From contig CAXBJY010000005.1 of the NCBI GenBank assembly GCA_963976285.1, forward strand, positions 3,164-67,163: 64,000 bases of DNA. Direction: 5' to 3'. Positions 2,136-43,521 of the stretch are shown one piece after another. This DNA is from an uncultured Gammaproteobacteria bacterium. GTDB taxonomy: Bacteria; Pseudomonadota; Gammaproteobacteria; Ga0077536. The notes under the pieces are model-generated. The model saw only the letters and a list, made by a program, of their open reading frames with translations. It was not told the DNA's origin and did not search any database. Every line of letters starts with the position of its first letter. The first letter of the stretch is position 1. The translations under genes and the position numbers were made by a program.

Positions 2136-2240
2136 TGTTCCTTCATGCTGCATTTTGGTTGTCCCGATGAGTAAATTGAATCAGCGTTTGTTCTTGCTAT
2201 GTTGTTATTTGGCCACGCCCGAAAGCGTTCGCGGGGCTCG

Positions 2241-5574: not shown

Positions 5575-7476
5575 ATGACCCGTAAAACGAATTATCCATT
5601 GCTTGATAACCTGAACTCGCCGGAAGATTTGCGGCAACTGCCGGAATCGTCACTGGAGCAGGTCGCGCGTGAATTGCGTCAATTCCTGCTCGCTTCGGTC
5701 AGTCAAAGCGGTGGCCACTTCGCTGCCGGGCTCGGCACCGTCGAACTGACCGTCGCGCTGCATTACCTCTACAACACGCCCGAGGATCGGATCGTTTGGG
5801 ACGTAGGCCACCAGGCCTACCCGCACAAGATCCTGACGGGGCGCCGGGACCGGATCCACACGGTACGCCAGAAAGGCGGTGTGGCACCGTTTCCGAAGCG
5901 CGACGAGAGCGCATACGACACGTTCGGGGTCGGCCATTCGAGTACATCGATAAGCGCCGCGCTCGGTATGGCACTCGCGGCGAAGACCACGGGTACGGGG
6001 CGCCGCGCGGTCGCCGTGATCGGCGATGGCGGGCTGACCGCCGGGATGGCATTCGAGGCACTGAACCATGCCGGTGACTGCGGCGTCGACATGCTCGTCA
6101 TCCTGAACGACAACAACATGTCGATTTCACCGAATGTCGGCGCGTTGTCGAACCGGTTCGCGCAATTGCTGTCCGGCAAGATTTACAAGACCGTGCGCGA
6201 AGGCAGCAAGAAAGTGCTGTCGCAGGTGCCGAACGCGTGGGAACTCGCGCGTCGCGCGGAAGAGCACGTCAAGGGACTCATCGTCCCCGGCACCCTGTTC
6301 GAAGAGTTCGGGTTCAACTACATCGGACCGATCGACGGGCACGATTTGCCAACCGTCCTGGCGACCTTGCGCAACATCCAGGAACTCGACGGACCTCAGT
6401 TCCTGCATATCATCACGAAAAAAGGCAAAGGTTACGCCCCGGCAGAAGAAGACCCGGTGAAATATCACGGCGTGACGCCGTTCGATCCGAACGTGGGCAT
6501 TGTGTCGAGCCCGTCGGCGGCGCCGTCGAAGCCGAGTTACAGCAAAATTTTCGGCGACTGGCTGTGCGATATGGCCGCGCTCGACAAACGCCTTGTCGCG
6601 ATCACACCGGCGATGCGCGAAGGGTCCGGACTCGTGCGTTTCGAGGAGGAATTCCCCGATCGCTACTACGATGTTGCCATTGCCGAGCAACACGCCGTGA
6701 CGGTTGCCGCCGGCATGGCATGTGACGGGCTGAAGCCCGTGGTTGCGATCTACTCGACGTTCCTGCAGCGTGGCTATGATCAACTCGTGCATGACGTCGC
6801 GCTGCAAAACCTGCCCGTCCTGTTTGCGCTCGACCGGGCCGGGGTTGTCGGCGCGGACGGACCGACGCACAACGGTAGCTACGACAACAGCTTTCTGCGT
6901 TGTCTGCCGAACATCGTACTGATGGCGCCGGCCGACGAGAACGAGTGCCGGCAGATGCTCTATACCGGCTTCATGCACGACGGCCCGGCCGCGGTGCGCT
7001 ACCCGCGCGGCGGCGGACCCGGTGTGGAACTCGAAGCGAAAATGACGGCGCTGCCGCTCGGCAAGGCCGAAGTACGACGCCGCGGCCGCGGCATCGCGAT
7101 ACTCGCGTTCGGCACGATGGTCGCGCCCGCCACGGCCGTCGCCGAGAAACTCGATGCAAGCGTCGTGAACATGCGCTTCGTCAAACCGCTCGATGAGGAC
7201 ATCATCGTCGAGATGGCGCACGCGCACGACGTCATCGTGACTATCGATGAGAACGTCACCGCGGGCGGTGCCGGCAGTGCGGTCAACGAGGTCCTGGCCG
7301 CGCACGGAATTACGCAGCTCACATTGAACCTGGGCCTGCCCGATCGTTTACTGCAGCACGGATCGCGTGACGATATGCTGGCCGAAGGCGGGCTCGATAT
7401 TGCGCACATCGAAGCATCGATCGCGGCGTTTCTCGACAAGGTACACGGCGCGCACAGCACCGCTCAAAGCGCCTAG
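5575..7476 (+). CDS. dxs: 1-deoxy-D-xylulose-5-phosphate synthase
   Basis: 633 aa. TPP-binding GDG..N motif ([19 protein letters not shown]) and the typical Dxs N-terminus ([16 protein letters not shown]). Confidence 0.9.
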
Positions 7477-7498: not shown

Positions 7499-8575
7499 TC
7501 AGCCAGCGAGCGCGGCCGTGAGCGCCTGCCGCAGGCGGCCGATGTCGGCGCTGCTGATCTCGCCCATCATCGAAATCCTGAAAATCGACTGCGCGTAGCT
7601 GCCCTGGCCCGCGTAGATGATGAACCCGGCCGCCTTCAGCGCATCGTGCAGCGTCGTATAGTCCGTGCCTTGCGGTAACTTGTAGGCGTGCAGCACGCAT
7701 GAACACTCGGCGGCATCGAGCAGCGGTTCGATGCCGAGCACTACGAGGGTCTCGCGGACCGTCGCCATGCGTGATTCGTAAAGTGCCCGTCGCGCCGCGA
7801 CCCCGCCGGATTCCTCGAGCTCATCGAGCGCTTCGTCGAGCGCATAGAACGTCTGTATCGACTGCGTGAATGGGGTGCCGGCACTGTCCTGGGCGCTGAC
7901 ATAGGCGCCGAGGTCGAGGTACAGATTGCGCGGGTGTGCCGCGGCGAGCGCATCGCGCGACGTGATGACGAAGCACGTTCCCGGGACCCCGTGCAGGCAT
8001 TTGTTCGCGGTGGCCGCGCAAGCCGCGATCGGCACGCTCGTAAACGGGATCGCTTCGGCCGCGAAACTGCTGACCGCGTCGAGCAGCACCGCGACGTCGT
8101 GTTGCCGGCAGATTTCCCCCAGCGGCCCGAGATCGTTCAGGCGGCCGGTGGTCGTTTCGTGGTGGACCACGGCAATATGCGAGATGTCGCCATCGGCGGC
8201 GAGGGCGGCGGCCACGGCCGCGTAATCGATCGGCGCCTGCCACGCCTGCGTCACGCTCGTCGCCGGGATCGCATAGCGCTCCGCGATGCGGCGCATTCTT
8301 TCGCCGTAAACACCGTTCTCGACGATCAACAGCTTGCCATCGCGCGGCACGAGGCTCGTGATCATGGATTCAACCGCGGCCGTACCCGAGCCCGTGATCA
8401 GCGCGCTGGCCCAGTCGGATGCCGGGAGGTCGTAGGTCGCGAGCAACTTCTCGCGAATGCCGCTTTGCAGGCTCGAGAATTCCGGTTCGCGATGACACAG
8501 GTCGTCGCGCAGCATCGCGTTGCGTACGCGCGCGCTAAGGGTGACCGGTCCGGGGTTGAGCAGGATCGTTTTCAT
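7499..8575 (-). CDS. phnW: 2-aminoethylphosphonate--pyruvate transaminase (class V aminotransferase)
   Basis: N-terminus LLNPGPVTLS and class-V PLP fold of about 358 aa. Overlaps ppd by 4 nt (ATGA). Confidence 0.75.
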   Translation of the reverse strand: MKTILLNPGPVTLSARVRNAMLRDDLCHREPEFSSLQSGIREKLLATYDLPASDWASALITGSGTAAVESMITSLVPRDGKLLIVENGVYGERMRRIAERYAIPATSVTQAWQAPIDYAAVAAALAADGDISHIAVVHHETTTGRLNDLGPLGEICRQHDVAVLLDAVSSFAAEAIPFTSVPIAACAATANKCLHGVPGTCFVITSRDALAAAHPRNLYLDLGAYVSAQDSAGTPFTQSIQTFYALDEALDELEESGGVAARRALYESRMATVRETLVVLGIEPLLDAAECSCVLHAYKLPQGTDYTTLHDALKAAGFIIYAGQGSYAQSIFRISMMGEISSADIGRLRQALTAALAG

Positions 8576-9726
8576 TGATGGATTTGCTCCTGCAGCCGCT
8601 CGAGTACCGCGGCCGGAGTGATTGCGGGACGTGGCAGATCATCGATCGTGCCGGTGGTGATTTTCATATGCACGAAACGCGGGCCGTTGCCGCGGGGTTG
8701 CGCGAGAAACGCGCTCAGGTCGTCAGGATGCGCGGCGCGCGCCGCCACCGCATAACCGCAAGCCCGGGCGATGTCGGCGAAATCGACCCCGGCCGAAACC
8801 GTCGCCTGCGCACCGGTTGAATCGTGCGCCTCGTTGTCGAGCAACACATGCGACAGGTTGCCGCCGGCGTAAGCGCCGACCGTCGCGAGGTTGCCCATGC
8901 GCATGAGGCCCGCGCCGTCGCCGTCGATGATGATCACATGCAAATCCGGACGTGCGAGCGCAAGCCCGAGCCCGAGGCTCGAGGCACAACCCATCGAACC
9001 GACCATGTACAGCTGGTTCGCGCGGTCAGCGGCCGCGTACAATTCGCGCCCGCTGAACCCGGTCGTCGCGATCACGACGGACCCGCGCCCGGGGCTCGCG
9101 TCGATGATCCGTGCAAGCGCCTGCGCGCGGGTCGGGCGCGTCGCCGCCGCGCATTGTTCGATCGACGGTCCCGTAACCTGGGTTGCGCGCACGCGTTCCG
9201 GTGGCGGGGGATTCGACAGGGGATGCGGTGACACCGTGCCTTTGCGCATGACCAGGGCATAGGGTCGCCGTTCGCGCGTGAGGTAGGCCTGCGCGCGTTC
9301 GAGCGCCGGTCCGATATCCGCGGTGTCAGCCGGAAAGTATTCCCACGGTATCTCCATCGTGTCGAACAGTTCACCGGTAATCCGGCCCATGAGTTCGTGC
9401 TGGGGTTCGTCCTTGAGCCCGGGTGCGCCACGATGCGTGCAGATCACGAGCAGCGGGATGCGGAAGACATATGCGAGCGAGGTCAACGGACTGACGGCGT
9501 TGCCGAGACCCGAGTTCTGCATCATCGCGACTCCCCCGCGGCCGCCGATCGCGGCGCCGCAGGCTGCCGCCACCGCATCACCTTCGTTCGCGGCGGAAAC
9601 GTAAGTCAGCGCGGGATCGCCGATCACGTAGTTGATGAACGGGGTCAGAAACGAACACGGCACCCCCGCGTACCAGTCGAAGCCGGCCGCGCAAGCGCGG
9701 TCGACGAAATCTCGTGCTTCGATCAT
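8572..9726 (-). CDS. ppd: phosphonopyruvate decarboxylase (TPP-dependent)
   Basis: About 384 aa with TPP-binding GDG-x25-N region (IIIDGDGAGLMRMGNLATVGAYAGGNLSHVLLDNEAH). Lies between PEP mutase and the AEP transaminase. Confidence 0.8.
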   Translation of the reverse strand: MIEARDFVDRACAAGFDWYAGVPCSFLTPFINYVIGDPALTYVSAANEGDAVAAACGAAIGGRGGVAMMQNSGLGNAVSPLTSLAYVFRIPLLVICTHRGAPGLKDEPQHELMGRITGELFDTMEIPWEYFPADTADIGPALERAQAYLTRERRPYALVMRKGTVSPHPLSNPPPPERVRATQVTGPSIEQCAAATRPTRAQALARIIDASPGRGSVVIATTGFSGRELYAAADRANQLYMVGSMGCASSLGLGLALARPDLHVIIIDGDGAGLMRMGNLATVGAYAGGNLSHVLLDNEAHDSTGAQATVSAGVDFADIARACGYAVAARAAHPDDLSAFLAQPRGNGPRFVHMKITTGTIDDLPRPAITPAAVLERLQEQIHQ

Positions 9727-9742
9727 CGTGCTGTAAACCTGC

Positions 9743-11398
9743 TCAGGAATCCTGCTCCGCCGCGAAATCCCCGGCGCGCTCGAGATCGGTCAGTGAATTC
9801 ACATCGAGCCAGTGTCCGTGGATATACCACACGCGCACATCGCGGCCGGCGTCGACCATGGCGTTGATCAGCTCGGGCAGGCCGAGCTGAGCGAAATCGT
9901 CGCGTTCGGACAGTCGGTTTATCGCGTCCTCGAGCCACGTGCGTCCTTCGCCGGTCGCGCGGATCATGCCGATCCAGCGACCGCTGGGTTCGCCGTCCGC
10001 CCCGGGGTCGCGGCCTTCGACGATGCGCTTCAGACTCACGGCCTGGCCCCACATCGAGCGGTCGTCCGGTTCGCTGCAGTAGGCAAAATCCTGGGTGCCG
10101 TTGTGCACGAGTTCATCCGTCGCGGAATCGACAACGACGCTGAGGTCTGCGTCGCTCTCCATCAAATCGCGCAGGATGTAGCTGCGGAACAACAGATCAC
10201 CGTACATGATGACCATGTCGTCGCTGAACCGATCCATTGCGCAGCGCAGGGAGCTGAGTTCACCGGTGTTTGCAAACGCCTCGTTTACGAGCAGGTTGAT
10301 ACCCTGGACGTCGATACTTTCCGCCTTGTAACCCGCAACGACCGTAATGTCGTCGATGCCGCGCTTTTTACATTTATCGACGAGACGGCGGAGCAGGGGA
10401 ATGCCGGCGACCGGAATCATCGCTTTTGGCCGTTCGGCCGTGAGGCCTTCAAGGTCGCCGCCGCTCCCGCTGCCCGCGGCAAGGATGATCGCCTTCGTTT
10501 CGGCCTGGTAACTCGAGAAATAACGATCTTCGGCCGCCGCGAGTTCGTCCGCACCCTGCAGGCGAAACAGTTCGTCGACGCTTGCAATGCGGTCTTCGAT
10601 TTCCGTCAGTGACTCCGTTTCGTAGATCACGGCCGCGGTTTTCTGCATTGCCTGAACGGCGCTGCGGATCAGGTGGTTCGCCCAGATCACGAGGCTGATC
10701 TCCGCCTTGCGGAACACTTCGACGGGGGTACTGTAATACTTCGTCGGCACGATGACGACGGGCGCGCGGTTCGCCCATTCCGCGGCAAATTCGACGATCT
10801 GATCGGGGCGCGAGAGTTTGCTGTGGATCAGAATCGCATCGGCGCCGGCCTGCCGGTACGCTTCGGCGCGACGCAGCGCCTCGCCAATATCCCAGCCCGC
10901 GATCAACGCCTCGACGCGCGCCACGATACAGAAATCGTCGTCGGACTGACTGTCCTTGCCGGCAGCTATTTTGCCGCAGAACTCGTCGGCGTCCGCGAGC
11001 GGCTGGCGTTCACCGCCGATGAAGCTGTTCGTTTTCGGAAAGACCTTGTCTTCGATACACACGCCGCCGATATTGCGCTGCTCGAGTTTGCGCACGAGCC
11101 GGCGCATGTTATTGAAATTACCGTAACCCGTATCGCCATCGAGCAGGATCGGGATCGTCGTGGCATCGGACATGAACTCGAGCATATCGACGACCTGCGT
11201 CCAGCTCGCCTCGTTGTTGTCGCGGACGCCAAACTGCGCGGACAGGGCGAGTCCGCTGGCCCAGATCCCCCTGAAACCGGCTTCCTCCGCGATGCGCGCG
11301 CTGATGCCGTTGTGTGCCTCGAGGATGAATTCGAGCTGGTTCGAGCTAATCAGCGAACGCAGTGCGCGTGCTTTAGTCGGGGCGGTGGTATTCGTCAT
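9743..11398 (-). CDS. pepM: phosphoenolpyruvate phosphomutase fused to a C-terminal nucleotidyltransferase domain
   Basis: N-terminal 290 aa is an ICL/PEPM-family TIM barrel with PEP mutase-like motifs ([30 protein letters not shown]). The C-terminal domain has the glycine-rich NTP-transferase signature [23 protein letters not shown]. Confidence 0.8.
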
Positions 11399-12129
11399 TG
11401 AATTCTCGGCAGGATCTGTTGGTTCGCGCGGGTTATATCTTCAGGAAAATCGATTTCGACCCAGGGGCGGCCCGTGACGTCGACGACGTCGAACGTCGCG
11501 CCCTGCACCAGTACGAGATCGCGAATGGCCTCTTCATACGGCTCGTTACGTCGTTGCGCACCGACAAACGCGTCGGCAATGTCTGCCAGCGCCGTCGCGG
11601 TCGCGGCCGTCAGCGAGAAAAACCCGACGGATTCACCGGCATCGTCATAACTGAGATCCGGCGCGAGTTGTTTGCGAAATTCGACCACGCGACCGCGCTC
11701 GAGGCAGATTTTCACGGGTTCGTCGCCCGGTTCGAAATCGCGGTCGCACAGAAAGCGGTTATGCACCGGGACGTGGGCGAGCAAGCGCAGGAGTTCGGGG
11801 TCGTAGAGGACGTCGGCATCCATCAACAGGATATCTTCGCCGGCCCGCAAAGCGTCGCGCATCGTCCACAGGCTGACGACGCTGCCTTCGCGGAAGGCGG
11901 GGTTCATGACGGTCGTGACCCGTGCCTGCGTATGACCCGTCACCGCTTGCTCGAGCAGTTCGTGGCGATAACCGGTGCACAGCGCCACGTCTTCGATCCC
12001 GGCGGCGACGAGATTTCGCAGGTGACGTTCGAGCAACGTGATGCCGCCGAACTCGAGCAGGCATTTCGGCCGGTCGCCGTGGGCGCCGAGGCGTGCGCCA
12101 ACGCCGGCGGCGAGAATTATCGCGCGCAT
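11395..12129 (-). CDS. nucleotidyltransferase (LicC/cytidylyltransferase-like)
   Basis: [21 protein letters not shown] signature. Stop overlaps the pepM start (ATGA). A longer ORF extends to 12204, but the start is chosen at the ATG that puts the G-rich loop at the N-terminus. Confidence 0.65.
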
Positions 12130-12154
12130 GGGCGCGGCCCGCGGCGTGGTTCGT

Positions 12155-12895
12155 TCATGGTCCGGGGTTGCGGCGGTCGCGGCTGAACACCTGCCTGAAA
12201 CCAAAATAGGCGATCGCGTCCTTCATATTCGAGACGAAACGCAATACCGGGTTCATGTGGGTGCTCGTCAGGTACTCGAGCGTCAGCGCGACCCGGCGCT
12301 CGTCGGCGGCGAGCGGCGTGATCCGGTGATACAGCTTGTCGCCGTTGAACATGACGAACATGCCGGGTTCGAGATTGACGCTCAGCGCCGAGGTCGCGAC
12401 GGCGGGATTCTTCGTGTGTAACTGGCATTCGAGGCGGCAACTCGGCGCGGCGACGAGGCCGAGCAGGATCGTGTAGCGCGCGCCGTCGTAATACGAGGTG
12501 TCGTAGTGATAGCCGATGTGGTCGCCGGGTTCGGTGTAGTAGTACAGGGCATAGGTGTGCGGATCGCCCGGCGGGCAATAGTTCAGTTCGCGCCCGCACA
12601 GTGCGCTCATGAACGCCATCAGGGCTTCGGCCTGATACAGCTCGCCGTAGCGCGGCGCGGTGCGATCGAGGTCGAAACGGCTGACGCTGCCGCCTTTCTT
12701 GTGCTTCGGGATGAAGTTTCGATGCACGACGGGCTCGAGCGCGGGCAGGTCGCCGAGCAGGGCCTCGAGGGTTGCCGGCGGCAGGAAATCCGGCACCAGC
12801 ACAAATTCGTCCTGGGCCACGAAATCGCGCTTTAACTGCTCGATATCGAGTGTCTTCAGGTGCTCTGCGAGCGCAGTGTTGAGGTCGGATTGCAT
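12155..12895 (-). CDS. PhyH-like Fe(II)/2-oxoglutarate dioxygenase
   Basis: HYD (His-x-Asp) motif in GDHIGYHYDTSYYDG and a distal His in KLYHRITP. First gene of the phosphonate operon. Start uncertain: ATG at 12895, or upstream TTG at 12958. Confidence 0.45.
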   Translation of the reverse strand: MQSDLNTALAEHLKTLDIEQLKRDFVAQDEFVLVPDFLPPATLEALLGDLPALEPVVHRNFIPKHKKGGSVSRFDLDRTAPRYGELYQAEALMAFMSALCGRELNYCPPGDPHTYALYYYTEPGDHIGYHYDTSYYDGARYTILLGLVAAPSCRLECQLHTKNPAVATSALSVNLEPGMFVMFNGDKLYHRITPLAADERRVALTLEYLTSTHMNPVLRFVSNMKDAIAYFGFRQVFSRDRRNPGP

Positions 12896-13043
12896 CGGAA
12901 CTGGATCGTCGGGGTCGAACGGCGGTTGCAGGGTACAGCGAGAGCCACGCGCAATCAATTACAAGGTGGAGGCGCCGATAAAGCTGTGAGAACATGCGCG
13001 GATCGATCCCGCCCCGAATGCACAGGAATTCACTACCCGAGTA

Positions 13044-14054
13044 ATGCGCTACGCCAAACTCCTCTTTCTCGTTATCGGCGTCGCGTTGCTCGTGTGGGTC
13101 GTCAAGCAGGCGAATATCGGTGAAATCTGGCGCCAGGTGCAGGCCATCAGCGTTGCGCAGATCGCCGGTGTGTTCGTGATCTACGCGTTGTATTTCGGCG
13201 CCGACGCGATCAGTTGGCAGGTTACGCTGGATTCCGTCGCGATGAACCTGCGCTGGGCGGGGCGTCTGTTCATCGTGCGTATGATCGGCGAGGCCTACAA
13301 CAACATCACACCGATGGCGTCGCTCGGCGGCGAACCAATCAAGGCCTGGTTTCTGAAAACGAACTACAACGTGCCCTTGAGCGACTCCGGCGCATCGCTG
13401 GTGCTGGCGAAAACCGCGAGCATGTTCTCGCTCGTCGTATTCGTCGGGATCGCACTCGTGCTAATCCTCGGGCACGACGATTTGTCCGCGAGTGACAAGA
13501 CGATGGCGAGTGTCGGACTTGCCTGGCTTGTGTTCAACGTGATCGTGTTCTTCCTGATGCAGCATCTGAAATTATCTACGTTCACCGCGACCCGCCTCGG
13601 ACGCACGCGGCTCGGAGAGCGGATGACGCATTTTATCGCGGGGCTGCAGAGCGTCGATGAGCAATTCGCGCGTTTCTACAAGCACCACCGCGGTCGCCTC
13701 GTGCTGTCGATGGCCTATGCGATGGCGAACTGGCTGCTCGGGGTGGTCGAGCTGTATTACATCCTCGGGCTGATCGGACATCCGGTCGGCTGGTGGGACG
13801 CCTGGATCATCGAAGCGATGGTGCAGATGATCCGCACGGCGGCATTTTTCATCCCGGCCGGGATCGGGGCGCAGGAAGGAGCGCTGATGATCGCGTGCAA
13901 TGCGCTGGCCGGTTCGCCGAATATCGGCATTGCCGCCGCGCTCGTGCGCCGCTTCAGGGAACTCGTGTGGATCGGAGTCAGCCTCGCGATTGCGGCGGCA
14001 ATGCACGTGAGTCCGAAAGTCGCGCGCGAGCCGGTCGCGACGCAGGATGCCTGA
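13044..14054 (+). CDS. hpnL: UPF0104 / MprF-flippase-like polytopic membrane protein (HpnL-like)
   Basis: 336 aa with about 8 predicted TM helices. Divergent from the phosphonate operon and adjacent to hpnA. Confidence 0.5.
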   Translation: MRYAKLLFLVIGVALLVWVVKQANIGEIWRQVQAISVAQIAGVFVIYALYFGADAISWQVTLDSVAMNLRWAGRLFIVRMIGEAYNNITPMASLGGEPIKAWFLKTNYNVPLSDSGASLVLAKTASMFSLVVFVGIALVLILGHDDLSASDKTMASVGLAWLVFNVIVFFLMQHLKLSTFTATRLGRTRLGERMTHFIAGLQSVDEQFARFYKHHRGRLVLSMAYAMANWLLGVVELYYILGLIGHPVGWWDAWIIEAMVQMIRTAAFFIPAGIGAQEGALMIACNALAGSPNIGIAAALVRRFRELVWIGVSLAIAAAMHVSPKVAREPVATQDA

Positions 14055-14069
14055 GTACGGCCGCGGCGC

Positions 14070-15053
14070 TTACGGGTGCGCGCGAAACCACGCGATCGCA
14101 TCTTCGAGCGCCTCGCGTGCGGGACGCGCCGTGTAGCCGAGTTCGGCGATCGCACGCGAGGAATCAAAATACATCTTCTTCTTCGCCATGCGTAATCCGT
14201 CGACCGTCGCCTGTGGCTCGGGGCCGTGGGTCAGCCACGCCCAGGCCTCGCTGGCATAGGCGACGGGATAGATCAGCGGGCGCGGCAGGCGGACACGGGG
14301 CGGCGGTCGGCCGCAGATCGCGGCGATCATCGTCAGAATTTCGCGCAGGCTCAGGTCCTCTCCGCCGAGGATATAGCGGCGACCAATCTCGCCGCGGTCG
14401 AGGGCCAGCAGGTGACCCGCGGCGACGTCATCGACATGCACGATGTTCAGCCCGGTATCGACGTACGCCGGCAGGCGGCCGGCCTGCGCGTCGCGCACGA
14501 CGCGACCGGTTGGGGTTGGCTTGATGTCGCGGGGACCGATCGGGGTCGACGGATTGACGATTACCGCCGGCAGATCGTGCGTTGTCACGAGTTCGTCGAC
14601 GGCGCGTTCGGCGAGGTATTTCGAACGCTTGTAGTGCCCAATCATATCGGCGAGTGTCACCGGCGTCGTTTCACTCCCGCGTGTTCCGTCACCCGGATTG
14701 CCGAGCGTCGCGACGCTGCTCGTATAGACAACCCGGCTAATGTTCGCGTCGAGCGCGGCGTGCATGAGCGCGCGCGTGCCATCGACGTTCGTGCGGTACA
14801 ACTCACGCGGATCGCGGGTCCATAAGCGGTAGTCAGCGGCGACGTGAAACAGCGTGTCACATCCGACGAGTGCCCGAGCGAGCGAGTCCGCGTCGTTCAG
14901 ATCCCCCTCGCGAACGTCGGCGTCGAGTCCGGCGAGGTTGCGTCGATCGGCTCCGGGTCGCACGAGTACGGCGAGTTCGGTTCCGCGCGCGCCAAGCAGT
15001 CTCGCGACCGCACTGCCGACAAATCCGGTCGCGCCGGTGACGAGCGTCTTCAC
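14070..15053 (-). CDS. hpnA: NAD-dependent epimerase/dehydratase, hopanoid-associated sugar epimerase (HpnA-like)
   Basis: VTGATGFVGSAV Rossmann motif and YxxxK (HYKRSK). Probable GTG start at 15053; the ORF extends to 15137. Confidence 0.7.
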   Translation of the reverse strand: MKTLVTGATGFVGSAVARLLGARGTELAVLVRPGADRRNLAGLDADVREGDLNDADSLARALVGCDTLFHVAADYRLWTRDPRELYRTNVDGTRALMHAALDANISRVVYTSSVATLGNPGDGTRGSETTPVTLADMIGHYKRSKYLAERAVDELVTTHDLPAVIVNPSTPIGPRDIKPTPTGRVVRDAQAGRLPAYVDTGLNIVHVDDVAAGHLLALDRGEIGRRYILGGEDLSLREILTMIAAICGRPPPRVRLPRPLIYPVAYASEAWAWLTHGPEPQATVDGLRMAKKKMYFDSSRAIAELGYTARPAREALEDAIAWFRAHP

Positions 15054-15054
15054 G

Positions 15055-15651
15055 TCAGCGAGCGCCGTCGGTGCCGGTGCGAATGAACTGCAAGGCAACG
15101 ACAAGCAGGGCGATCGGCGCGCCGATCGCGGCGGCATATAAAAAACCGACTTCCTGATTGCTCAGCGTGACGAGCGGAATCAGGTACAGCACGTCTTCGG
15201 TTTCAAAGCCCGCGAAACTCGCCTGCCGGACCGCGGCTTTGCCATGGCGCGACTCGATCATGTGACGCAGTTGAAAAATACCGGCGACCGCGATGCCTGC
15301 GACAAGACCGTAAACCGCCGCGGCGTCGCCGATCGTCGCCGTCAATCCGAATCCGAGGCCCGTGAACAGGCCGACGGTCACGAGCGCGTCGCTGAACAGG
15401 TCGTAGCGATGGCCAAACACGCTCATTTTGCCGCTCATGCGCGCGAGTTCGCCGTCGGTGTGGTCGAGGAAGTTTGACAGCACGATGCACAGCGCGGCGA
15501 GGTTGAACTGCGAACCGGTCGCAAACAGCCACGCGCCCGCGAGACCGACGAGCAAACGCAGCGTCGTCAGCGCGTTCGGATGCAGACGTGTATCGACGAA
15601 TGGCCGCACGAGCAGTGCCGCCGCGCGGGCATCCCAGGGTTTTGCGCTCAT
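15055..15651 (-). CDS. CDP-alcohol phosphatidyltransferase family protein
   Basis: Signature D-x2-DG-x2-AR-x8-G-x3-D-x3-D (DHTDGELARMSGKMSVFGHRYDLFSD) with multiple TM helices. ATG overlaps the hpnN stop (ATGA). Confidence 0.75.
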   Translation of the reverse strand: MSAKPWDARAAALLVRPFVDTRLHPNALTTLRLLVGLAGAWLFATGSQFNLAALCIVLSNFLDHTDGELARMSGKMSVFGHRYDLFSDALVTVGLFTGLGFGLTATIGDAAAVYGLVAGIAVAGIFQLRHMIESRHGKAAVRQASFAGFETEDVLYLIPLVTLSNQEVGFLYAAAIGAPIALLVVALQFIRTGTDGAR

Positions 15652-18260
15652 GCTGTTCGTACTGGTGAGAACTGCTTCAACAACGCGGGCAATACTAGCA
15701 AGGTGCACACGAGCGTCGCCACGATGCCGATCGTGAGCATGACGCCCATGCTCGCGGTGCCGGCATGGGACGATGTTGCGAGGTTGCCGAAACTGACCGT
15801 GGTGGTCAGGGCGCTGAACAGTACGGCACGGGCCGTACTCGTTTGCAGCAGATTACCGTTGTCCGGCAGCGCGGTCCGGTAGCGGTGGAGCATGTGCAAG
15901 GCACTGTCGACGCCGATCCCGAGCAGCAACGGGAGCGCGATGATGTTCGCGAAATTGAACGGCAGCGAGAACACGACGGACGCTGCAGTCGTGAGCAGGC
16001 CGGCGAGGATCAGCGGGCTCAGCACGATGGCGACGTCCTTGAACGAACGCAGGATCAGCCACAACAAGCCCGTGATCACGACGAACGCGCAGGAGAACGC
16101 CTGGATAAACGCGAGCACGACGGCGTCACTCGCGCCGAGGTTGATGACCGGCGCACCCGTGATTCGATCGCCGAGCACCTCGCGCACGGATTCGACGAAT
16201 CGTTTCATCGCGCGCGGATCATCCACCGGTTCGGCCGGGAAGATTTCGAGGCGGCGCGTGCCGGATTCCGTCACCCAGCGTTCGCGCAGCTCCGGCGGCA
16301 GGTCGGTGACGTCGAACGGCTCGGGTGCGAGGCTGTCGTTGAGTAGCGCGAGTCGGCCGTCGAAACTCATGAGCAGTTTTGCCTCGAGCGCCGCGAGCGC
16401 GACGGCCTGGGCGTCCGGACCCAGCGTCGCAAACCTGTCGCGCCACGCGATGAGCGCGGAGCGCAGGGCGGCAGCGGCGTCCATCGCGGCCTCGTCGTCG
16501 AGCGCGGCGAGCAGTTCGTCTATCGCCGTCAGGGTGGCGGCGGGGTCCGCGGCGGGTGTTGGCTGTGGCGACAGATCGGCGCCGAGGATGAGGGCGAGAT
16601 CGTCGACGATGGCGAGCTTTTCGTCCTGCCGCGCGGGCACGAGGTCATCGAGACTGCGCACGGATTGCACGGTGTCGAGCGAACTCAGCGTGACGCTCGC
16701 GTCGGCGACTTCGGCGGCGGAATCGAACAGCGCGGATATCGACATCGGCGATTGCTGATCATCGGCGATCAGATCGCGATACGTCGTGACGGACTGCGCA
16801 GCCGGGTTGTTCAGGTTCACCGGGTCCGTGTCGAATTTCGCGCCCGGGATTGCCAGCGCGGTGAGTATCCACGTAACGGTCGCCACGCCCAGTACGGCGC
16901 GCGCGTGACGGCGCGGAAATGACGCGACTCGATCGGGCAGCGTAAACGTGCGTGTCGCGGGGCCGGGCTGCGGCATCACATGCAGCAGCGCGGGCAGCAG
17001 CGTGATACTGACGAGCAGACTGATGAACATGCCAACCCCGGCAATGAGGCCGAGCTCCGCAACCCCGCGATACGCCGTTGGCAGGAACGCAAAGAATCCC
17101 GTTGCGGTTGTCAGCGCACACAGGATCAACGATACGCCCACATGGCGGCTCGTACGGTTGATGGCGAAATCGGCGTTGTTGTGCCGGAGCATTTCGCGGT
17201 AGCGCAGGCAGATATGAATCGCGAAATCGACGCCGAGACCCACGTACAGCACCGCGAACGCGATCGAAATCATGTTCAGGGTGCCGACGGCGGCGACCGC
17301 GAAGCCCGCGGTAAAGACGAGGCCCACGATCAGCGTTACGAGCGTCGCGACGACGAGTACGATCGAGCGCAGGCCGATCAGCAGGCACACCAGCACCATC
17401 ACGAGCGCGAGGGTACCCGCGTTCTGCGAACCGGTGATCACGCTGTCGAGTTCGTCGTAAGCGAGCGCCGCGGCGCCGGTCAGGCGGATGTTCACGCCGT
17501 GTTCGCGATCGAGCGCGAGCGCTGCGGCATGGGCTGCGACCGCCTTCATGGCCGGTTCCGCGGGCAGCAGGGCGGTGTAATCGAGGCGTGGTTGCAGCAC
17601 GACGAACTCGCGATGCACGGCGGTGTCTTCGGCATCGCCCGTGAGCAGGGCTTGCCACGACAGCGGTACGTTGTTGCCACGGTTCAGTTCGTCGATAGCG
17701 CTTGCGATCCGAGCCGTCGCCGGCACAATCGCCGCCGGTGTCGTCTCCGCCGTCATTGCGTCCCGGAGCAGCCCGAACAACACGGCGCTCGAGCGCTCGG
17801 CGCTGAGACGCGCAAGAAACGGTTGTGCTTCGCCGAGTTGATCGCTGAGCGCCTGAAGTTCGTTCGGTGCGAGATACAACAGCTGATTGCGCCGCAGAAA
17901 CGGATCATCACGCGGGTAGAACACCTCGCCGACGATATCGTCCGCCGCGCGCAGCCGCTGCGTCAGCGCACCGGCGGCGTCGCGTGCCACATCGGCGGTT
18001 GCGCCGTCGATGACGACGACGATCGTATCGGCGAAGAACGGGAAGTCCCGTTTATAGGCGGTGTACGTCGCCCGCCACGGCAGCTTCTCCGACAGCATCG
18101 CACCGGTGTCGGTATTGATCGCAATATGGCTGATGGCATACCCGGCGACGAGCGCCGCGCCGACAAGGTAAGCGACAATAACCGGCCATGCCCGCCGCTG
18201 GGCGGTATCGACGAGACGGCCGATCACGTTCTCGGCCAGCGGGTACAGGGTGGCGAGCAT
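15648..18260 (-). CDS. hpnN: MMPL/RND-superfamily hopanoid transporter
   Basis: 870 aa with two large periplasmic loops and 12 TM helices in an RND/MMPL arrangement, inside the hopanoid operon. Confidence 0.8.
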   Translation of the reverse strand: MLATLYPLAENVIGRLVDTAQRRAWPVIVAYLVGAALVAGYAISHIAINTDTGAMLSEKLPWRATYTAYKRDFPFFADTIVVVIDGATADVARDAAGALTQRLRAADDIVGEVFYPRDDPFLRRNQLLYLAPNELQALSDQLGEAQPFLARLSAERSSAVLFGLLRDAMTAETTPAAIVPATARIASAIDELNRGNNVPLSWQALLTGDAEDTAVHREFVVLQPRLDYTALLPAEPAMKAVAAHAAALALDREHGVNIRLTGAAALAYDELDSVITGSQNAGTLALVMVLVCLLIGLRSIVLVVATLVTLIVGLVFTAGFAVAAVGTLNMISIAFAVLYVGLGVDFAIHICLRYREMLRHNNADFAINRTSRHVGVSLILCALTTATGFFAFLPTAYRGVAELGLIAGVGMFISLLVSITLLPALLHVMPQPGPATRTFTLPDRVASFPRRHARAVLGVATVTWILTALAIPGAKFDTDPVNLNNPAAQSVTTYRDLIADDQQSPMSISALFDSAAEVADASVTLSSLDTVQSVRSLDDLVPARQDEKLAIVDDLALILGADLSPQPTPAADPAATLTAIDELLAALDDEAAMDAAAALRSALIAWRDRFATLGPDAQAVALAALEAKLLMSFDGRLALLNDSLAPEPFDVTDLPPELRERWVTESGTRRLEIFPAEPVDDPRAMKRFVESVREVLGDRITGAPVINLGASDAVVLAFIQAFSCAFVVITGLLWLILRSFKDVAIVLSPLILAGLLTTAASVVFSLPFNFANIIALPLLLGIGVDSALHMLHRYRTALPDNGNLLQTSTARAVLFSALTTTVSFGNLATSSHAGTASMGVMLTIGIVATLVCTLLVLPALLKQFSPVRTA

Positions 18261-18265
18261 TTGCT

Positions 18266-18988
18266 TCAGGCGATCTTGGCGCGTTCATTACGCGACCCCG
18301 TCGTGGCGAAAGCCGGGCGCAACAGCATGGCCGCCTGGTGCAGGGTCGCGAGCGCCGCGCGATGCCAGCGCGCGAGGCGCAGCAGCGCGGGCAAATCCCC
18401 GGGGCTGTGCGCGAGCGAGGTGACAACGGACCATGGTCGCGTCGTGCCGTTGCTGGCAACCGCATCAAGCGCTATTCGCGGGATCGCGAAACCGACCGGA
18501 TCGACGATTGCCCGCACGGCGACGAAGCGTACTCCGGCGGCGGCCGCCGCCGCGCCGATTGCCGCGGATTCCATGTCGACGGCGACACATCGGCTTGCGG
18601 TGTGGATCGCTGCTTTTTCCGTCGGGTCGGTAATTGCGTGATCACTCGTATAGCCGGATCCGGTGCGTACATCGGTCGTGCGCAACGCATGGATGATGTC
18701 GCGCTGCCAGGTCGGATCGCATTGGCGGTGTGTGCCGCTGGCATCCACCACGTCGGTGTACACGAGAAGTTTGCCGGGGGGCAGGTTCGCCACGAGCGCG
18801 CCGGCGGTTCCCCATGACACGAGCGCATCGACCCGACCGGCCAGCATGCGCTCGGCCCCGGCGGCCGCGTTCGCGGGACCAATCCCGGTAACAATAATCT
18901 GGTGGCCATACGGATTCCCGTCGCGCGAGACGGCGGCATTCAGCGTGCGCGCCTCGTCGGCCATGGCCGTGACAAAACCTAATCGCAA
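18266..18988 (-). CDS. hpnG: PNP/MTA-nucleosidase family hopanoid-associated phosphorylase
   Basis: N-terminal RLGFVTAMADEA beta-strand typical of MTAN/PNP. About 240 aa. Probable TTG start. Confidence 0.7.
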   Translation of the reverse strand: MRLGFVTAMADEARTLNAAVSRDGNPYGHQIIVTGIGPANAAAGAERMLAGRVDALVSWGTAGALVANLPPGKLLVYTDVVDASGTHRQCDPTWQRDIIHALRTTDVRTGSGYTSDHAITDPTEKAAIHTASRCVAVDMESAAIGAAAAAAGVRFVAVRAIVDPVGFAIPRIALDAVASNGTTRPWSVVTSLAHSPGDLPALLRLARWHRAALATLHQAAMLLRPAFATTGSRNERAKIA

Positions 18989-19010
18989 AATAGTGTTCCG
19001 GTTTGAATGT

Positions 19011-20099
19011 TCAGACGACGCGTGATTCAGCTTCGTCGATAACAGTGGGCGCGCTGGCCGTGATTTCCCGTTGCGGCAGACCGCTCGAGGCGAGCGCGAA
19101 CAGGGCCCACAAGCCGGCGTTCGATCGCACGAGCGCGTTCGTCGAAATCACCGTCGCCTTGACGCTGCGGCGTAAAATTTTTACTTCGCTGCCGTCGGCG
19201 TAATCGCGGTGACGATTGAGCTTGCGCAACGTGAGCACGGCCATACCAAGCGCCCACAAACAGAATTTACGCATGCCGGGTTGCTCGCGCGGCAGCATGC
19301 AGGTGTAACGCAAGGCATTGCGCAGGTGCCCGTGAGCAACACTGATCAATTCACCGAGTGCATCCTCGAACCCCGGGCCGCCGCGGCCGGGCGCGATGTC
19401 GGACAAGCGAACGCCACGGGCGGCAAACACGTCGGCCGGCAGCCAGCACGCGCCGCGGGCACGGTCGTCCCAGATGTCTTTCAGGATATTCGTCATTTGC
19501 AGGCCCTGGCCGAAAGAGACGGCGAGCCGCATCATCTCGGCACGCCGCGGTTGCAGTTCAGGACAGTGGTCGCAAAACAACGCGGTCAACATTTCGCCCA
19601 CGACGCCGGCGACATAGTAGCAGTAGCGGTCCATCGCTGCCTGGTCTGCGAGTCCGTCGAGCGTTTCCTGACCCTGGTAATAGACCATGCCGTCGGCCAT
19701 CGTGCGTACGCACGCTTCCATCGCCGCGCGCTGGTTCGCGTTGAGACTGTGCGTGATGCGGATCACGGCCGGCGTCTCGGCGACGAGCTCGCGCTCCGCC
19801 GCGAGGGTGTGCGAGGCGAGCCGCGGCGCGAGTTCGGCGGCAAATGCCGCGGCGTCGCCATCGCCGCGAACGATATCAATGAACGCCTGCGAGTAACGCA
19901 GTTTGTCGTCGAACGGCAGCCCGGCGTCGTCCTCGATGGTGTCGGCGATCCGGCACAGCAGGTACGCATTCGCGACCGCGTGATACAGCGCCGCGGGCAG
20001 CGTCGGAATCGTCAGCGCGAAGGTTCTGGACACGCCCTGCAGGATACGGTCCTGAAAAGCGGTGTCGCGCTCACTCGGTGGGTTACTCATGGGGGGCAT
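19011..20099 (-). CDS. sqs: squalene synthase (squalene/phytoene synthase family)
   Basis: Asp-rich motifs (RIADTIEDD, NILKDIWDD) and an isoprenoid-synthase fold. The roughly 360-aa length favours a single-enzyme Sqs type over HpnC/HpnD. The ORF extends upstream to 20474, but the conserved core starts near M126. Confidence 0.75.
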   Translation of the reverse strand: MPPMSNPPSERDTAFQDRILQGVSRTFALTIPTLPAALYHAVANAYLLCRIADTIEDDAGLPFDDKLRYSQAFIDIVRGDGDAAAFAAELAPRLASHTLAAERELVAETPAVIRITHSLNANQRAAMEACVRTMADGMVYYQGQETLDGLADQAAMDRYCYYVAGVVGEMLTALFCDHCPELQPRRAEMMRLAVSFGQGLQMTNILKDIWDDRARGACWLPADVFAARGVRLSDIAPGRGGPGFEDALGELISVAHGHLRNALRYTCMLPREQPGMRKFCLWALGMAVLTLRKLNRHRDYADGSEVKILRRSVKATVISTNALVRSNAGLWALFALASSGLPQREITASAPTVIDEAESRVV

Positions 20100-20223
20100 A
20101 GTGTATCCGTCTTGGGTCGTGCGGAGCCAGTCGCCGGCGGCAGCGGCGCGACCGCGGTCGCAGCGCGCGTTATGATCCGCGCCCAGACCATGACGCGGGG
20201 CGGTTCCCGGCGGGGGAACGGGG

Positions 20224-21234
20224 ATGGACTCGATAACGGAAATCAGCGTGACAACGACGGCGCCGGGCACGTTCACGATCGCCTGGCCGCCCGCATTCTC
20301 GCCCGACCCCGTCAGCGTCTGCGCGAGTTCCGCGCCGGACACGCTGGCGCAGGCCGACCCGGTGGTGACGGACGCTGTCGGCCACTGCACGCTCGGGGGA
20401 TTCGCGCCGGATGCGCGCCAGTATTTCCGCCTGAGTCGCACGAACGGCGAGGATCTCGTCGTCGCCGAACGCAATGTACCGCTCGCAGGGGCGGTGAACT
20501 TCCGCGATCTTGGCGGCTACGCCGCGATTGACGGCCGGCGGGTCCGGTGGGGGCGTCTGTTCCGCTCCGGCCACCTGTCGACCCTGACCCCGGCCGGGCA
20601 GGCGGCTTTCGCACGACTCGGCATCGCGACCGTGTGTGATTTTCGCCTCGCCTCGGAGCGTGCCCGGGAGAACATGACCTTACCAGCGGGCGTGACGCTC
20701 GAAGGCATTGAAATACCGCCCGGGGTGCGCGATCCCGAGTATTTTCACCGGGTTTTCCGCGACGCCAGCGGGCCGGACGACGTGGCCGAGGCGGTGCACG
20801 AGGTGGTCCTGTCGATGGTCAACGAGTCGGCCGACCGCTATCGCCGTCTGTTCGAGGTGTTGCTCGAGCCGGGAGAACGCAACATTTTGATCAATTGTTC
20901 GGCGGGCAAGGAACGCACCGGGATCGCCACGGCGCTGCTGCTCAGCGCTTTGGGCGTTCCCCGGGAAACGATTTATTATGACTTCATGCTGTCGGCCGTG
21001 TATTTTCCCGCGCTTGCGGAAATTCCCCGGGTGCTCGAAAAGTATGCTGTCAGTGCCGTCGGCGATGCCGCGCAGCGCCTCGTGATGCCGTTGCTCGAAA
21101 CGCGCGCATCGTATCTGCAGGTCGCATTCGATTCGATCGACCGCGAGTGCGGGGACACGGACGCGTTTTTACGCAAGCATTACGATCTCGGCACGGCCGA
21201 ATGTACCGAACTGCGGCGACGTTACCTCGTATGA
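20224..21234 (+). CDS. protein-tyrosine phosphatase family protein (Y_phosphatase3-like)
   Basis: CX5R P-loop INCSAGKERTG. Confidence 0.6.
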   Translation: MDSITEISVTTTAPGTFTIAWPPAFSPDPVSVCASSAPDTLAQADPVVTDAVGHCTLGGFAPDARQYFRLSRTNGEDLVVAERNVPLAGAVNFRDLGGYAAIDGRRVRWGRLFRSGHLSTLTPAGQAAFARLGIATVCDFRLASERARENMTLPAGVTLEGIEIPPGVRDPEYFHRVFRDASGPDDVAEAVHEVVLSMVNESADRYRRLFEVLLEPGERNILINCSAGKERTGIATALLLSALGVPRETIYYDFMLSAVYFPALAEIPRVLEKYAVSAVGDAAQRLVMPLLETRASYLQVAFDSIDRECGDTDAFLRKHYDLGTAECTELRRRYLV

Positions 21235-21280: not shown

Positions 21281-22024
21281 ATGAGCAGACTCTACGAAGA
21301 CGGGGACAAGTACGGCTATCAGTCGGATTTCGCCATCGTCGAAGCGTACAACAGCGCGGTGAAAGACCTTGTCCGCAAGCGCTTCGATGAATCCGGCCTC
21401 GCGTGGCGCGACTTTGTTGCCGGGCGCGCCTACGATGCGATCACGAAGGACGACATGGCGGCAATCGAACAACGCCTGCTCAGCTACGGTTACCGCTTCG
21501 AGCCGTCGGCCATGTCCTCGGCGACCGAGCGTCCGGAAGCCTACAAGGATTCCGGTTTGCACGACGAGAACTTCTGTTTCGAACACCCGGACGCACCAAC
21601 CGCCCCTGCCGATGCAGGCGGGCGGGAGCTGCGCGGTGCCGGCGACAATGTCGTCAGCCGCGCGGCGAATGTCACCGGCATTGCGCGTTACGTGCGCACG
21701 AGCGACAAAGTGCTCGAATACCTGACGAACGGTGTTCCGGACGACACGATCGCCATCGTCGATGACTCGGGCGGCACGCTCACCGCGCCTATCCTCGAGA
21801 AATTCAAAGCCGTGCTGTGTGCCGGCGGGACAACGCGCTCGCATCTCGCGATCCTCACCCGCGAATACGGAATCCCGTGCTTCATGAACGCGCGCCTGAG
21901 CGGTATCAGGACCGGCGATGTGCTCGAAGTCGAAGCGACGGCGAAAGCAAAATCGGGGGACGACTATGCCAGCGGCAGCGACGTTTCCGGGAAGGTCTGG
22001 CGGCTCAAGGCGTCCGGAGAATAG
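21281..22024 (+). CDS. PEP-utilising-enzyme mobile (phosphohistidine swivel) domain protein
   Basis: C-terminal GGTTRSHLAILTREYGIPCF resembles the PEPS/PPDK phospho-His segment GGRTSHAAIIARELGIP. The N-terminal 150 aa are unassigned. Confidence 0.6.
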   Translation: MSRLYEDGDKYGYQSDFAIVEAYNSAVKDLVRKRFDESGLAWRDFVAGRAYDAITKDDMAAIEQRLLSYGYRFEPSAMSSATERPEAYKDSGLHDENFCFEHPDAPTAPADAGGRELRGAGDNVVSRAANVTGIARYVRTSDKVLEYLTNGVPDDTIAIVDDSGGTLTAPILEKFKAVLCAGGTTRSHLAILTREYGIPCFMNARLSGIRTGDVLEVEATAKAKSGDDYASGSDVSGKVWRLKASGE

Positions 22025-22027
22025 AAC

Positions 22028-39358: not shown

Positions 39359-39548
39359 GGAATTGCTCGGGGTGACAGGGGCACGGATTCTAAAGGCCCG
39401 GTCGTGATTGCGCGAGGCCGTCGTGTCTGGTTTGTTACGCTAGCGTGATCGCAGGCATGGAAGTTTTGATCGTCTAACGCAGGTAACCGACGCGCTTGAC
39501 GGCATGGTCGTCAATTTACCTGAATTCCAGATGTAGGCAGGAGCCATT

Positions 39549-40796: not shown

Positions 40797-40890
40797 GCAC
40801 GCATACACTTGGACGTTCTGAGTATGAAAAAAAACAGTTCGCACCGTGCTGCCAGGCGCGAGGGATATCCTGTCGGAGACTGGAATTAAC

Positions 40891-41445: not shown

Positions 41446-41700
41446 CGCCACGACGAGGCGATATCCGGGAGTAAAAGCTCCGGGTCGGCGGAAGCCGGCC
41501 AGGTAACCCGGAACAGAGCGACACCATTAAAGCTCCTGTAATACCGTGACGCGATGAGCCTCGAGCGCAACGCCCCGAGTGAGTGTTGTTCCGGTAATCC
41601 TGCCTTCCGTCCTTCAGACCCCCTGCGGCTGCTCCCAATCGTTCCAGGCGATTGGGTCGGGATCGATGTCTCCGATCAGGCAAACAGGCAAGCGTAAGCA

Positions 41701-42990: not shown

Positions 42991-42998
42991 CGGTTGAA

Positions 42999-43499: not shown

Positions 43500-43521
43500 C
43501 GTTCGCCGCCAGCGACCGCGT

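Follow-up and report, generated by a model that had tools for sequence, protein, structure and literature searches.

We analysed a stretch of 64,000 nucleotides (hereafter, the window) from an uncultured gammaproteobacterium of the GTDB lineage Ga0077536 (contig CAXBJY010000005.1), in which genes for the synthesis and activation of 2-aminoethylphosphonate (AEP) are interleaved with genes of hopanoid biosynthesis, tailoring and transport. Between positions 1398 and 20342 the window holds 16 genes in an uninterrupted run, every one of them hopanoid, isoprenoid or phosphonate related, and a CDP-alcohol phosphotransferase of 198 amino acids (CDPOH; 15055-15651, minus strand) is placed inside a hopanoid operon, directly between hpnN and hpnA. 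The linkage of phosphonate and hopanoid genes is kept in dozens of species-level genomes from three proteobacterial classes, in differing gene orders. A phosphonate-capped hopanoid is thus a plausible and testable hypothesis: the locus would make a phosphonate head group, attach it to a polyol hydroxyl of an extended hopanoid, and have the product flipped and exported by HpnL, HpnN, HpnM and MlaA, a proposal on which we consider the chances evenly divided.

The phosphonate module and its transferase

Candidate open reading frames (ORFs) were scanned with Pfam and NCBIfam profiles, using curated bit scores as family cutoffs; the window has a G+C content of about 62%, and long spurious ORFs are common in it. 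The resulting coordinates agree with the gene calls on an identical public contig (Tara Oceans TARA_SAMEA6019342 scaffold_21, 314 kb). An earlier note on this DNA had described phosphonate genes bordered by hopanoid genes with nothing unrelated in between, which the 16-gene run bears out, and the core phosphonate enzymes that it named are all present close to where it had placed them. These are a phosphoenolpyruvate (PEP) mutase fused to an NTP_transf_3 domain (PepM; 9743-11398, minus strand; TIGR02320, 390 bits, cutoff 320), a phosphonopyruvate decarboxylase (Ppd; 8572-9726, minus strand; TIGR03297, 427 bits, cutoff 313), an AEP aminotransferase (AEPT; 7499-8575, minus strand; TIGR03301, 380 bits, cutoff 361) and a stand-alone PntC-like cytidylyltransferase (NT2; 11395-12129, minus strand; PF12804), the three AEP enzymes exceeding their equivalog cutoffs. 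Further, the mutase carries the EDKxxxxxNS motif, here [10 protein letters not shown] at residue 116, which is diagnostic of PEP mutases (PMC6697681).

The two nucleotidyltransferases differ in their loops. In the domain fused to PepM the loop (residues ~300-320) reads [10 protein letters not shown], without the canonical GxGxR; in betaproteobacterial and alphaproteobacterial orthologues it reads LAASRG.., and GxGxR is missing in every orthologue examined. NT2 keeps the canonical LAAGVGARL loop with its GxGxR intact, and its closest solved relative is the AEP cytidylyltransferase PntC of Treponema denticola (6PD1, E 3e-11). To judge from its loop, the domain joined to PepM may lack activity or have a specialised role, and the lack of GxGxR may explain why two nucleotidyltransferases are conserved.

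The remaining gene of this operon encodes an Fe(II)/2-oxoglutarate (2OG) oxygenase of the HalD/BesD family (12155-12895, minus strand; PF23169 HalD, 36.6 bits). It had been labelled PhyH-like in the earlier note, a label that does not hold, nor does an identity with PhnY*, as PF05721 gives no match at E<=1. A halogenase reading of the HalD match was also rejected: the iron site is HYD (HxD), aligned to HWG of the halogenase HalB, and not the carboxylate-free HxG/A site of the BesD/HalD radical halogenases, so that by alignment the enzyme has a hydroxylase-type site. Overlapping this gene, a 292-aa ORF (12117-12995, minus strand) was discarded as a wrong-frame artefact, rich in Arg and Pro, that the high G+C explains. 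In Pandoraea, Nevskia and Steroidobacteraceae (loci L064, at 9872-11431, L059, L073, L076 and L084) the transferase and the HalD-type oxygenase form a single fused ORF of ~480-530 aa, which suggests that hydroxylation is placed at the membrane. The oxygenase slot of alphaproteobacterial versions (L090-L092) holds a PhyH-type dioxygenase, and Roseomonas marmotae has no oxygenase at the locus; hydroxylation is therefore a common yet dispensable tailoring step. As a separate observation, a transferase-oxygenase pair stands alone among housekeeping genes in one gammaproteobacterial metagenome-assembled genome (MAG; L048, 10001-11362).

The transferase (PF01066) was correctly foreseen in the earlier note, which had grouped it with the phosphonate genes; its actual place is between hpnN (15648-18260, minus strand; RND-type hopanoid transporter; TIGR03480, 931 bits, cutoff 752) and hpnA (14070-15053, minus strand; hopanoid-associated short-chain dehydrogenase/reductase; TIGR03466, 491 bits, cutoff 368). 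The hpnN stop and the transferase start overlap in a shared ATGA, and hpnA begins 1 nt past the transferase stop, a spacing by which the enzyme that chooses the acceptor would be expressed within a hopanoid transport and tailoring operon. Its catalytic motif, D63xxDGxxARx8GxxxDxxxD88, is complete and invariant in 30 homologues. The AlphaFold2 model (pLDDT 90, pTM 0.85) has the helical membrane fold of CDP-alcohol phosphotransferases, and the top Foldseek matches were AF2299 (TMq 0.75) and IPCT-DIPPS, followed by phosphatidylinositol phosphate (PIP) synthases, with CEPT1 and CHPT1 as distant matches only (E ~0.02-3); the model and the fold search confirm the family and cannot discriminate the acceptor. 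A housekeeping PgsA or PssA identity was rejected (16-25 bits against cutoffs >100).

From these features we propose that the protein is a CMP-AEP:lipid-alcohol transferase. Because AEP lacks a hydroxyl, it cannot be the acceptor. Given the two PntC-type genes, the most economical chemistry would pair CMP-AEP as donor with a membrane alcohol as acceptor; PntC pathways have been proposed to work through CMP-phosphonate donors (PMC6697681). The sequence from PEP through AEP and CMP-AEP to an alcohol put forward in the earlier note stands, backed by equivalog-level profile matches, by the motifs of PepM and of the CDP-alcohol family, the latter intact, and by a confident fold model. Elsewhere, lone homologues of the transferase (52-53% identical; L075 and L086) were seen in cyanobacterial contigs of Chlorogloeopsis and Caldora, where neither phosphonate nor hopanoid genes lie close by.

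The seventh gene of the module, on the opposite strand, encodes a flippase-like membrane protein of the LPG_synthase_TM family (13044-14054, plus strand; PF03706, 127 bits). In the phosphonate literature this PF03706 gene is listed as a 'phospholipid biosynthesis' gene (PMC8942020). Scored against the HpnL profile TIGR03476 (cutoff 195.65), the window protein reaches 159 bits, as a divergent HpnL relative, and the corresponding module proteins reach 354 bits in Pandoraea, 330 in Mycetohabitans and 260 in Roseomonas. Judged by profile score, the membrane gene of the module is HpnL, a hopanoid-associated orphan family for which work from 2025-26 still gives the function as unknown, and a hopanoid-specific membrane protein would then be core to the phosphonate module even where the latter is unlinked from the hpn locus. 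In Alphaproteobacteria, HpnL is missing from genomes without hpnH (PMC12583986). HpnL-family genes also occur in hopanoid loci devoid of pepM, in Methylobacterium and, in Table S8 of a preprint on shc neighbourhoods (10.1101/2025.07.29.667474), in Hyphomicrobium, Bombella and Cupriavidus. Related PF03706 domains flip lipids with amine-bearing head groups, e.g., lysyl- and glucosaminyl-phosphatidylglycerol (NCBIfam names), an activity that, by analogy, fits a zwitterionic AEP head group.

Conservation of the hopanoid linkage

A single genome for each GTDB species was scanned with a transferase alignment; relatives were encoded in 377 species genomes, and the best 80 of these 377 loci were analysed, including marine, lake, glacier-stream and soil MAGs. 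Of the 80, 57 had squalene synthase, HpnG, HpnA or HpnH no more than 10 kb away, and in 54 the transferase was directly followed by hpnA. Phosphonate and hopanoid genes were found together in 42 loci, and a further 15 were short contigs ending short of the phosphonate genes. The arrangement persists down to 47% identity of the transferase and 39% of HpnN. This survey, the comparison across genomes that the earlier note had called for, shows that the adjacency is not a peculiarity of one strain.

Seventeen loci initially seemed unlinked, with only ~3 kb available downstream of the module, and were re-centred on AEPT. The class 'no hopanoid genes within 10 kb' turned out to be partly an artefact, for re-centring revealed Pandoraea as hopanoid-linked: in Pandoraea nosoerga the order is 2OG-HpnL-NT2-PepM-Ppd-AEPT-DXS-HpnN-HpnM-IspH-HpnH-HpnA-HpnB. 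The Mycetohabitans rhizoxinica megaplasmid has an arrangement of the Pandoraea type, with hpnD-shc beyond. In Roseomonas marmotae the oxygenase-less module stands between MlaA-HpnN-DXS-polyprenyl synthase and ispH-hpnH-hpnG-shc-hpnE-D-C-HpnB-hpnA, and in Inquilinus it abuts hpnCD-hpnE and a full hopanoid locus, an organism that also has a row in Table S8. The metagenomic locus L091 reads HpnL-CDPOH-MMPL, with a GT4 and a P450 after the module. As in the window, DXS adjoins the module in Pandoraea, Mycetohabitans and Roseomonas. Because the gene orders differ among Alpha-, Beta- and Gammaproteobacteria, the linkage is one that has been repeatedly rebuilt or retained in these classes. In the Pandoraea-type comparison, an ORF of L064 (19246-20337) was set aside as apparently spurious, having no Pfam match and no similarity to the Mycetohabitans ORF at the same position.

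In Table S8, the CDP-alcohol phosphatidyltransferase family IPR000462 is the sixth commonest within 20 ORFs of shc (1409 of ~3660 loci), a count that was not used as evidence; the Burkholderia and Cupriavidus rows inspected there do not carry it, and the text of the preprint is silent on the family.

By gene content, the module is a known one. The 'Burkholderiales_CDP-OH' group, which makes up 318 of 882 RefSeq ppm neighbourhoods (36%) and is the commonest ppm family, has been equated with the 'Group 1 phosphonolipids', with a 1-hydroxy-AEP lipid as predicted product (PMC8942020); in that paper (Li & Horsman, 2022), the Group 1 name is credited to Yu et al. (2013). The product of this cluster has never been characterised, and in Burkholderia, where ppm is expressed, no phosphonolipid was found (PMC8942020). 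We confirmed the same seven genes, in order, on chromosome 2 of Burkholderia cenocepacia. Identities to the B. cenocepacia, Pandoraea and Mycetohabitans orthologues are 50-65% for six of the proteins and ~27% for the LPG_synthase_TM protein; relative to B. cenocepacia in particular, they are 51-53% for the oxygenase and the second PntC, 57% for CDPOH and 27% for LPG_synthase_TM. On sequence grounds the cassette is the cluster of Group 1 (Burkholderiales_CDP-OH), and neither it nor the bare idea of a phosphono-terpene is new: in Nitrosococcus wardiae, genes for squalene synthase and cyclase next to ppm have been said to hint at 'a possible phosphonoterpene' (PMC8942020), a remark that traces to an antiSMASH label (PMC7285500, Nitrosococcus), and shc-ppm linkage has been mentioned for Roseomonas and Belnapia (PMC8776678). 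The novelty suggested in the earlier note is reduced by these publications as regards the cassette and the hybrid loci; no paper on an actual phosphonate-bearing hopanoid was found in the literature searched. The present analysis adds three things to the published remarks: across dozens of genomes the transferase is coupled with hpnN and hpnA at the operon level, the linkage recurs in three classes, and the module membrane gene is recognised as HpnL.

Remaining genes of the locus and its surroundings

Five transcription units were delineated from strand and spacing: SQS-hpnG-hpnN-CDPOH-hpnA, with squalene synthase as its first gene; the divergent HpnL-like gene; 2OG-NT2-PepM_NT-Ppd-AEPT; DXS; and hpnH-hpnB-hpnM-mlaA. 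A consensus promoter scan was uninformative, with promoter-like sites at or below shuffled expectation, and terminator-like sites numbered 28 against 16.8 +/- 4.4 in shuffled sequence, none of them at the inferred operon ends.

The first unit opens with squalene synthase (SQS_PSY; 19011-20342, minus strand; PF00494, 190 bits; TIGR01559, 110 bits) and an HpnG-like nucleoside phosphorylase/hydrolase (18266-18964, minus strand; TIGR03468, 174 bits), which lies just under its cutoff of 187. Beyond the phosphonate operon, and convergent with it, is DXS, the entry enzyme of the methylerythritol phosphate (MEP) pathway (5575-7476, plus strand; TIGR00204, 920 bits), followed by HpnH, the radical SAM enzyme that forms adenosylhopane (4106-5236, minus strand; TIGR03470, 552 bits, cutoff 225), an HpnB-like GT2 glycosyltransferase (2945-4057, minus strand; TIGR03469, 380 bits, cutoff 379), the MlaC-like periplasmic lipid carrier HpnM (2241-2849, minus strand; TIGR03481, 206 bits, cutoff 160) and an MlaA-family lipoprotein (1398-2153, minus strand; PF04333, 242 bits). 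An MlaA gene near shc has been named hpnS (10.1101/2025.07.29.667474), and we propose the lipoprotein as the outer-membrane end of hopanoid trafficking. Among the hopanoid labels of the earlier note, those of hpnH, hpnM, hpnA and hpnN are thus secure above cutoff, and the genes called hpnL-like and hpnG exist with scores below theirs; the GT2, taken then for HpnI-like, is HpnB-like, the HpnI identity being rejected at 38 bits for TIGR03472 against a cutoff of 310. HpnI, HpnJ, HpnK and HpnO were all absent from the window.

Several neighbouring genes were recorded. Directly upstream of the MlaA end lies a CCG-domain / 4Fe-4S dicluster protein (147-1388, plus strand). Divergent from squalene synthase is an IphP-type phosphatase of the Y_phosphatase3 family (20224-21234, plus strand), which is kept in the closest relatives; this family has 631 occurrences within 20 ORFs of shc in Table S8. 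At 21281-23590 (plus strand) lie a 247-aa protein with a PEP-utilizers swivel domain and, after it, one of 520 aa for which Pfam, NCBIfam and PDB gave no match, the latter 86-97% identical in relatives whose transferase is 65-88% identical, an unusually strong conservation beside the locus. Farther away, the region 39537-58171 contains two linalool dehydratase/isomerase-family proteins (43522-45402, minus strand; 56237-58171, plus strand), two cytochromes P450 (39537-40796, plus strand; 41701-43137, minus strand) and an AcrB-type RND pump (49576-52794, plus strand); together these may form an island for terpene catabolism in the part of the genome that also carries the triterpenoid locus.

Proposed product, alternatives and known systems

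In the pathway that we propose, PepM would convert PEP to phosphonopyruvate, Ppd would convert this to phosphonoacetaldehyde, and AEPT would yield AEP, as indicated by the equivalog-level family matches. NT2 would then make CMP-AEP, by homology to the T. denticola PntC, and the HalD-type enzyme would optionally hydroxylate the head group, probably to 1-hydroxy-AEP. The phosphotransferase would move the phosphonyl group from CMP-AEP to a hopanoid hydroxyl, e.g., C-35 of bacteriohopanetetrol (BHT), releasing CMP; by analogy with MprF, the HpnL-type PF03706 protein would flip the zwitterionic product, which HpnN, HpnM and MlaA would probably carry outward. The predicted products are BHT-AEP ([M+H]+ 654.4857) and BHT-hydroxyAEP ([M+H]+ 670.4806). 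It is the conserved gene context that singles out a hopanoid as the most likely acceptor. Extended to the whole family, the proposal is that the Group 1 phosphonolipid product, including that of Burkholderia pseudomallei and B. cenocepacia, would be a phosphonate-esterified bacteriohopanepolyol and not a glycerophospholipid, flipped by HpnL and exported through HpnN/HpnM/MlaA in marine, freshwater and soil Proteobacteria of three classes; this broader statement we advance tentatively, at a little under even chances.

A number of observations weigh against a hopanoid acceptor. No CDP-alcohol phosphotransferase is known to use a triterpenoid acceptor, and the literature searched gave no report of a phosphonate- or phosphate-bearing bacteriohopanepolyol. 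The HpnL-like protein of the window falls under its family cutoff, as noted above, and no squalene-hopene cyclase (SHC) gene was detected in the 64-kb window by the DxDDTA motif or Pfam; the shc of the source organism is presumably elsewhere in its genome. An SHC was found in the relative L054; a 'DTDDTA' match in L082 was examined and is not an SHC. In Burkholderia cenocepacia, B. multivorans, B. stagnalis and B. arboris the module lies ~1-2 Mb from hpnH on the same replicon, in Caballeronia, Trinickia, Nevskia and Steroidobacteraceae MAGs it was still unlinked after re-centring, and in L048 and L092 parts of it occur in housekeeping contexts. Because 0 of 6 Steroidobacterales genomes were SHC-positive in a published survey (10.1101/2025.07.29.667474), some carriers of the module may lack hopanoids altogether. 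In favour of such an acceptor, across GTDB Gammaproteobacteria SHC presence correlates with PEP mutase (r=0.43, p=3e-58) and with Ppd (r=0.38), according to Table S7 of the same preprint with its columns as interpreted here; the PepM-SHC correlation could be phylogenetic, Burkholderiales carrying both.

The unlinked carriers would be expected if the product were an ordinary glycerophosphonolipid, in which (hydroxy)AEP is transferred onto diacylglycerol to give an analogue of phosphatidylethanolamine, the HpnL-like protein flips it, and the hopanoid context reflects co-regulation or co-trafficking of two envelope lipids. The eukaryotic route to phosphonolipids, which is established, joins CMP-AEP to diacylglycerol, and glycerolipids are the substrates of the PIP synthases, which are the characterised membrane-embedded relatives that the searches retrieved. 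A glycerophosphonolipid is also the published prediction for the Group 1 family, yet none was found in Burkholderia despite ppm expression (PMC8942020). Moreover, it leaves unaccounted for the departure of the transferase from its phosphonate operon to a place in hpnN-CDPOH-hpnA, seen in at least 54 species genomes, the re-creation of the linkage in differing gene orders in Alpha-, Beta- and Gammaproteobacteria, and the use of a flippase-like gene from the hopanoid-associated HpnL family instead of a general phospholipid family. We regard this as the main alternative, less likely than a hopanoid acceptor.

A different acceptor, such as the sugar of an HpnB-made glycosyl-hopanoid, a polyprenol, a sphingoid or ornithine-type lipid, or a non-lipid envelope polymer, would make the clustering a matter of general outer-membrane remodelling. 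The conservation of HpnB (GT2) and DXS nearby, the polyprenyl synthetase of the Roseomonas locus, and the GT4 and P450 that follow the module in L091 are consistent with this, as is the fact that the sole characterised hydroxy-AEP lipid is the Bacteriovorax sphingolipid (PMC8942020). However, no sphingolipid or polysaccharide biosynthesis genes were found in the window or in the conserved core, which consists of seven genes only, with one membrane transferase and one flippase-like protein, and a hopanoid-borne sugar as acceptor would itself give a hopanoid conjugate, which is a sub-case of our proposal; we consider such acceptors improbable. The polarity of the reaction might also be reversed, with a cytidylyltransferase activating a phosphorylated hopanoid (phosphoribosyl-hopane, should HpnG act as a phosphorylase) for transfer onto the hydroxyl of 1-hydroxy-AEP. 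In keeping with it are the presence of two nucleotidyltransferases, of which one has an unusual loop, the membership of HpnG in the phosphorylase superfamily, and the fusion, in several genera, of the transferase with the oxygenase that would create the hydroxyl; nevertheless, Roseomonas marmotae has two nucleotidyltransferase genes and the transferase with no oxygenase at the locus, hence no AEP hydroxyl, the closest solved relative of NT2 is the AEP-specific PntC, and the published PntC logic is that of CMP-phosphonate donors (PMC6697681). We deem this reversal very improbable.

Should the phosphonate-capped hopanoid be real, it would tell what the commonest family of phosphonate clusters makes (36% of the ppm neighbourhoods in RefSeq; PMC8942020), assign a function to the orphan hopanoid gene HpnL and possibly to HpnA, and show that a charged head group of the phospho type can occur on composite hopanoids. 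As the first hopanoid to contain phosphorus and the first with a C-P bond, it would be a new lipid class with potential as a biomarker, and a membrane-bound source of AEP in marine and freshwater bacteria, the window itself being of Tara Oceans metagenomic origin. With its amine, the head group would parallel MprF chemistry, and the finding could bear on envelope resistance in Burkholderia pathogens, in which hopanoids are already tied to polymyxin tolerance. With diacylglycerol as the acceptor, what is left is two pathways for envelope lipids whose co-location is conserved. Cultured carriers exist in Pandoraea, Mycetohabitans, Roseomonas, Burkholderia and Nitrosococcus.

Among known systems, the nearest is the Group 1 cluster, with which the window shares the same seven proteins: the Ppm-PntC fusion, Ppd, AEPT, the Fe/2OG oxygenase, the second PntC, the CDP-OH transferase and LPG_synthase_TM. 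The genes do not form here one co-directional block, as the transferase belongs to the hopanoid operon, the HpnL-like gene is divergent on the opposite strand, and the remaining five constitute an operon of their own flanked by DXS and hpnH; since the product of the family is uncharacterised, membership in it does not define the chemistry. The phosphonate-terpene hybrids labelled by antiSMASH in Nitrosococcus oceani and N. wardiae and in Roseomonas and Belnapia likewise have ppm with squalene/hopene genes, but those reports are one-sentence remarks, without a transferase, an acceptor, a link to HpnL or a cross-phylum survey. The only characterised bacterial lipid with the predicted head group, the 1-hydroxy-2-AEP sphingophosphonolipid of Bacteriovorax stolpii (PMC8942020), comes from a distant cluster family (GCF 761), with ceramide as acceptor and no hopanoid context.

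With regard to the enzymes, the Kennedy-type transferases EPT/CEPT1 and the Tetrahymena route resemble the proposed reaction in combining a soluble CMP-linked aminoethyl(phosph/phosphon)ate donor with a membrane lipid alcohol, through members of the same superfamily; the transferase of the window differs in being a minimal helical core without extensions, and its proposed acceptor is a triterpenoid polyol. The closest solved structures are those of Archaeoglobus IPCT-DIPPS and AF2299 (PDB 4MND, 4O6M; TMq 0.68-0.75, 21-23% identity), and the IPCT half is among the solved relatives of NT2. The shared logic is that of a cytidylyltransferase making a soluble CDP-alcohol that a membrane partner transfers, although IPCT-DIPPS uses soluble inositol phosphate both as donor alcohol and as acceptor, whereas here the two functions lie in separate genes and the donor is a phosphonate. 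The module membrane protein is of the same PF03706 family as HpnL and the MprF-type domains that flip lipids with amine-bearing head groups. Finally, the composite hopanoids, with the glucosamine or cyclitol ether built by HpnI/HpnK/HpnJ or the amine introduced by HpnO, differ from the product proposed here in that its chemistry would be that of a phosphonate ester, unprecedented among reported bacteriohopanepolyols, and they are alike in that a polar head group is placed at C-35 by genes of the hpn locus.

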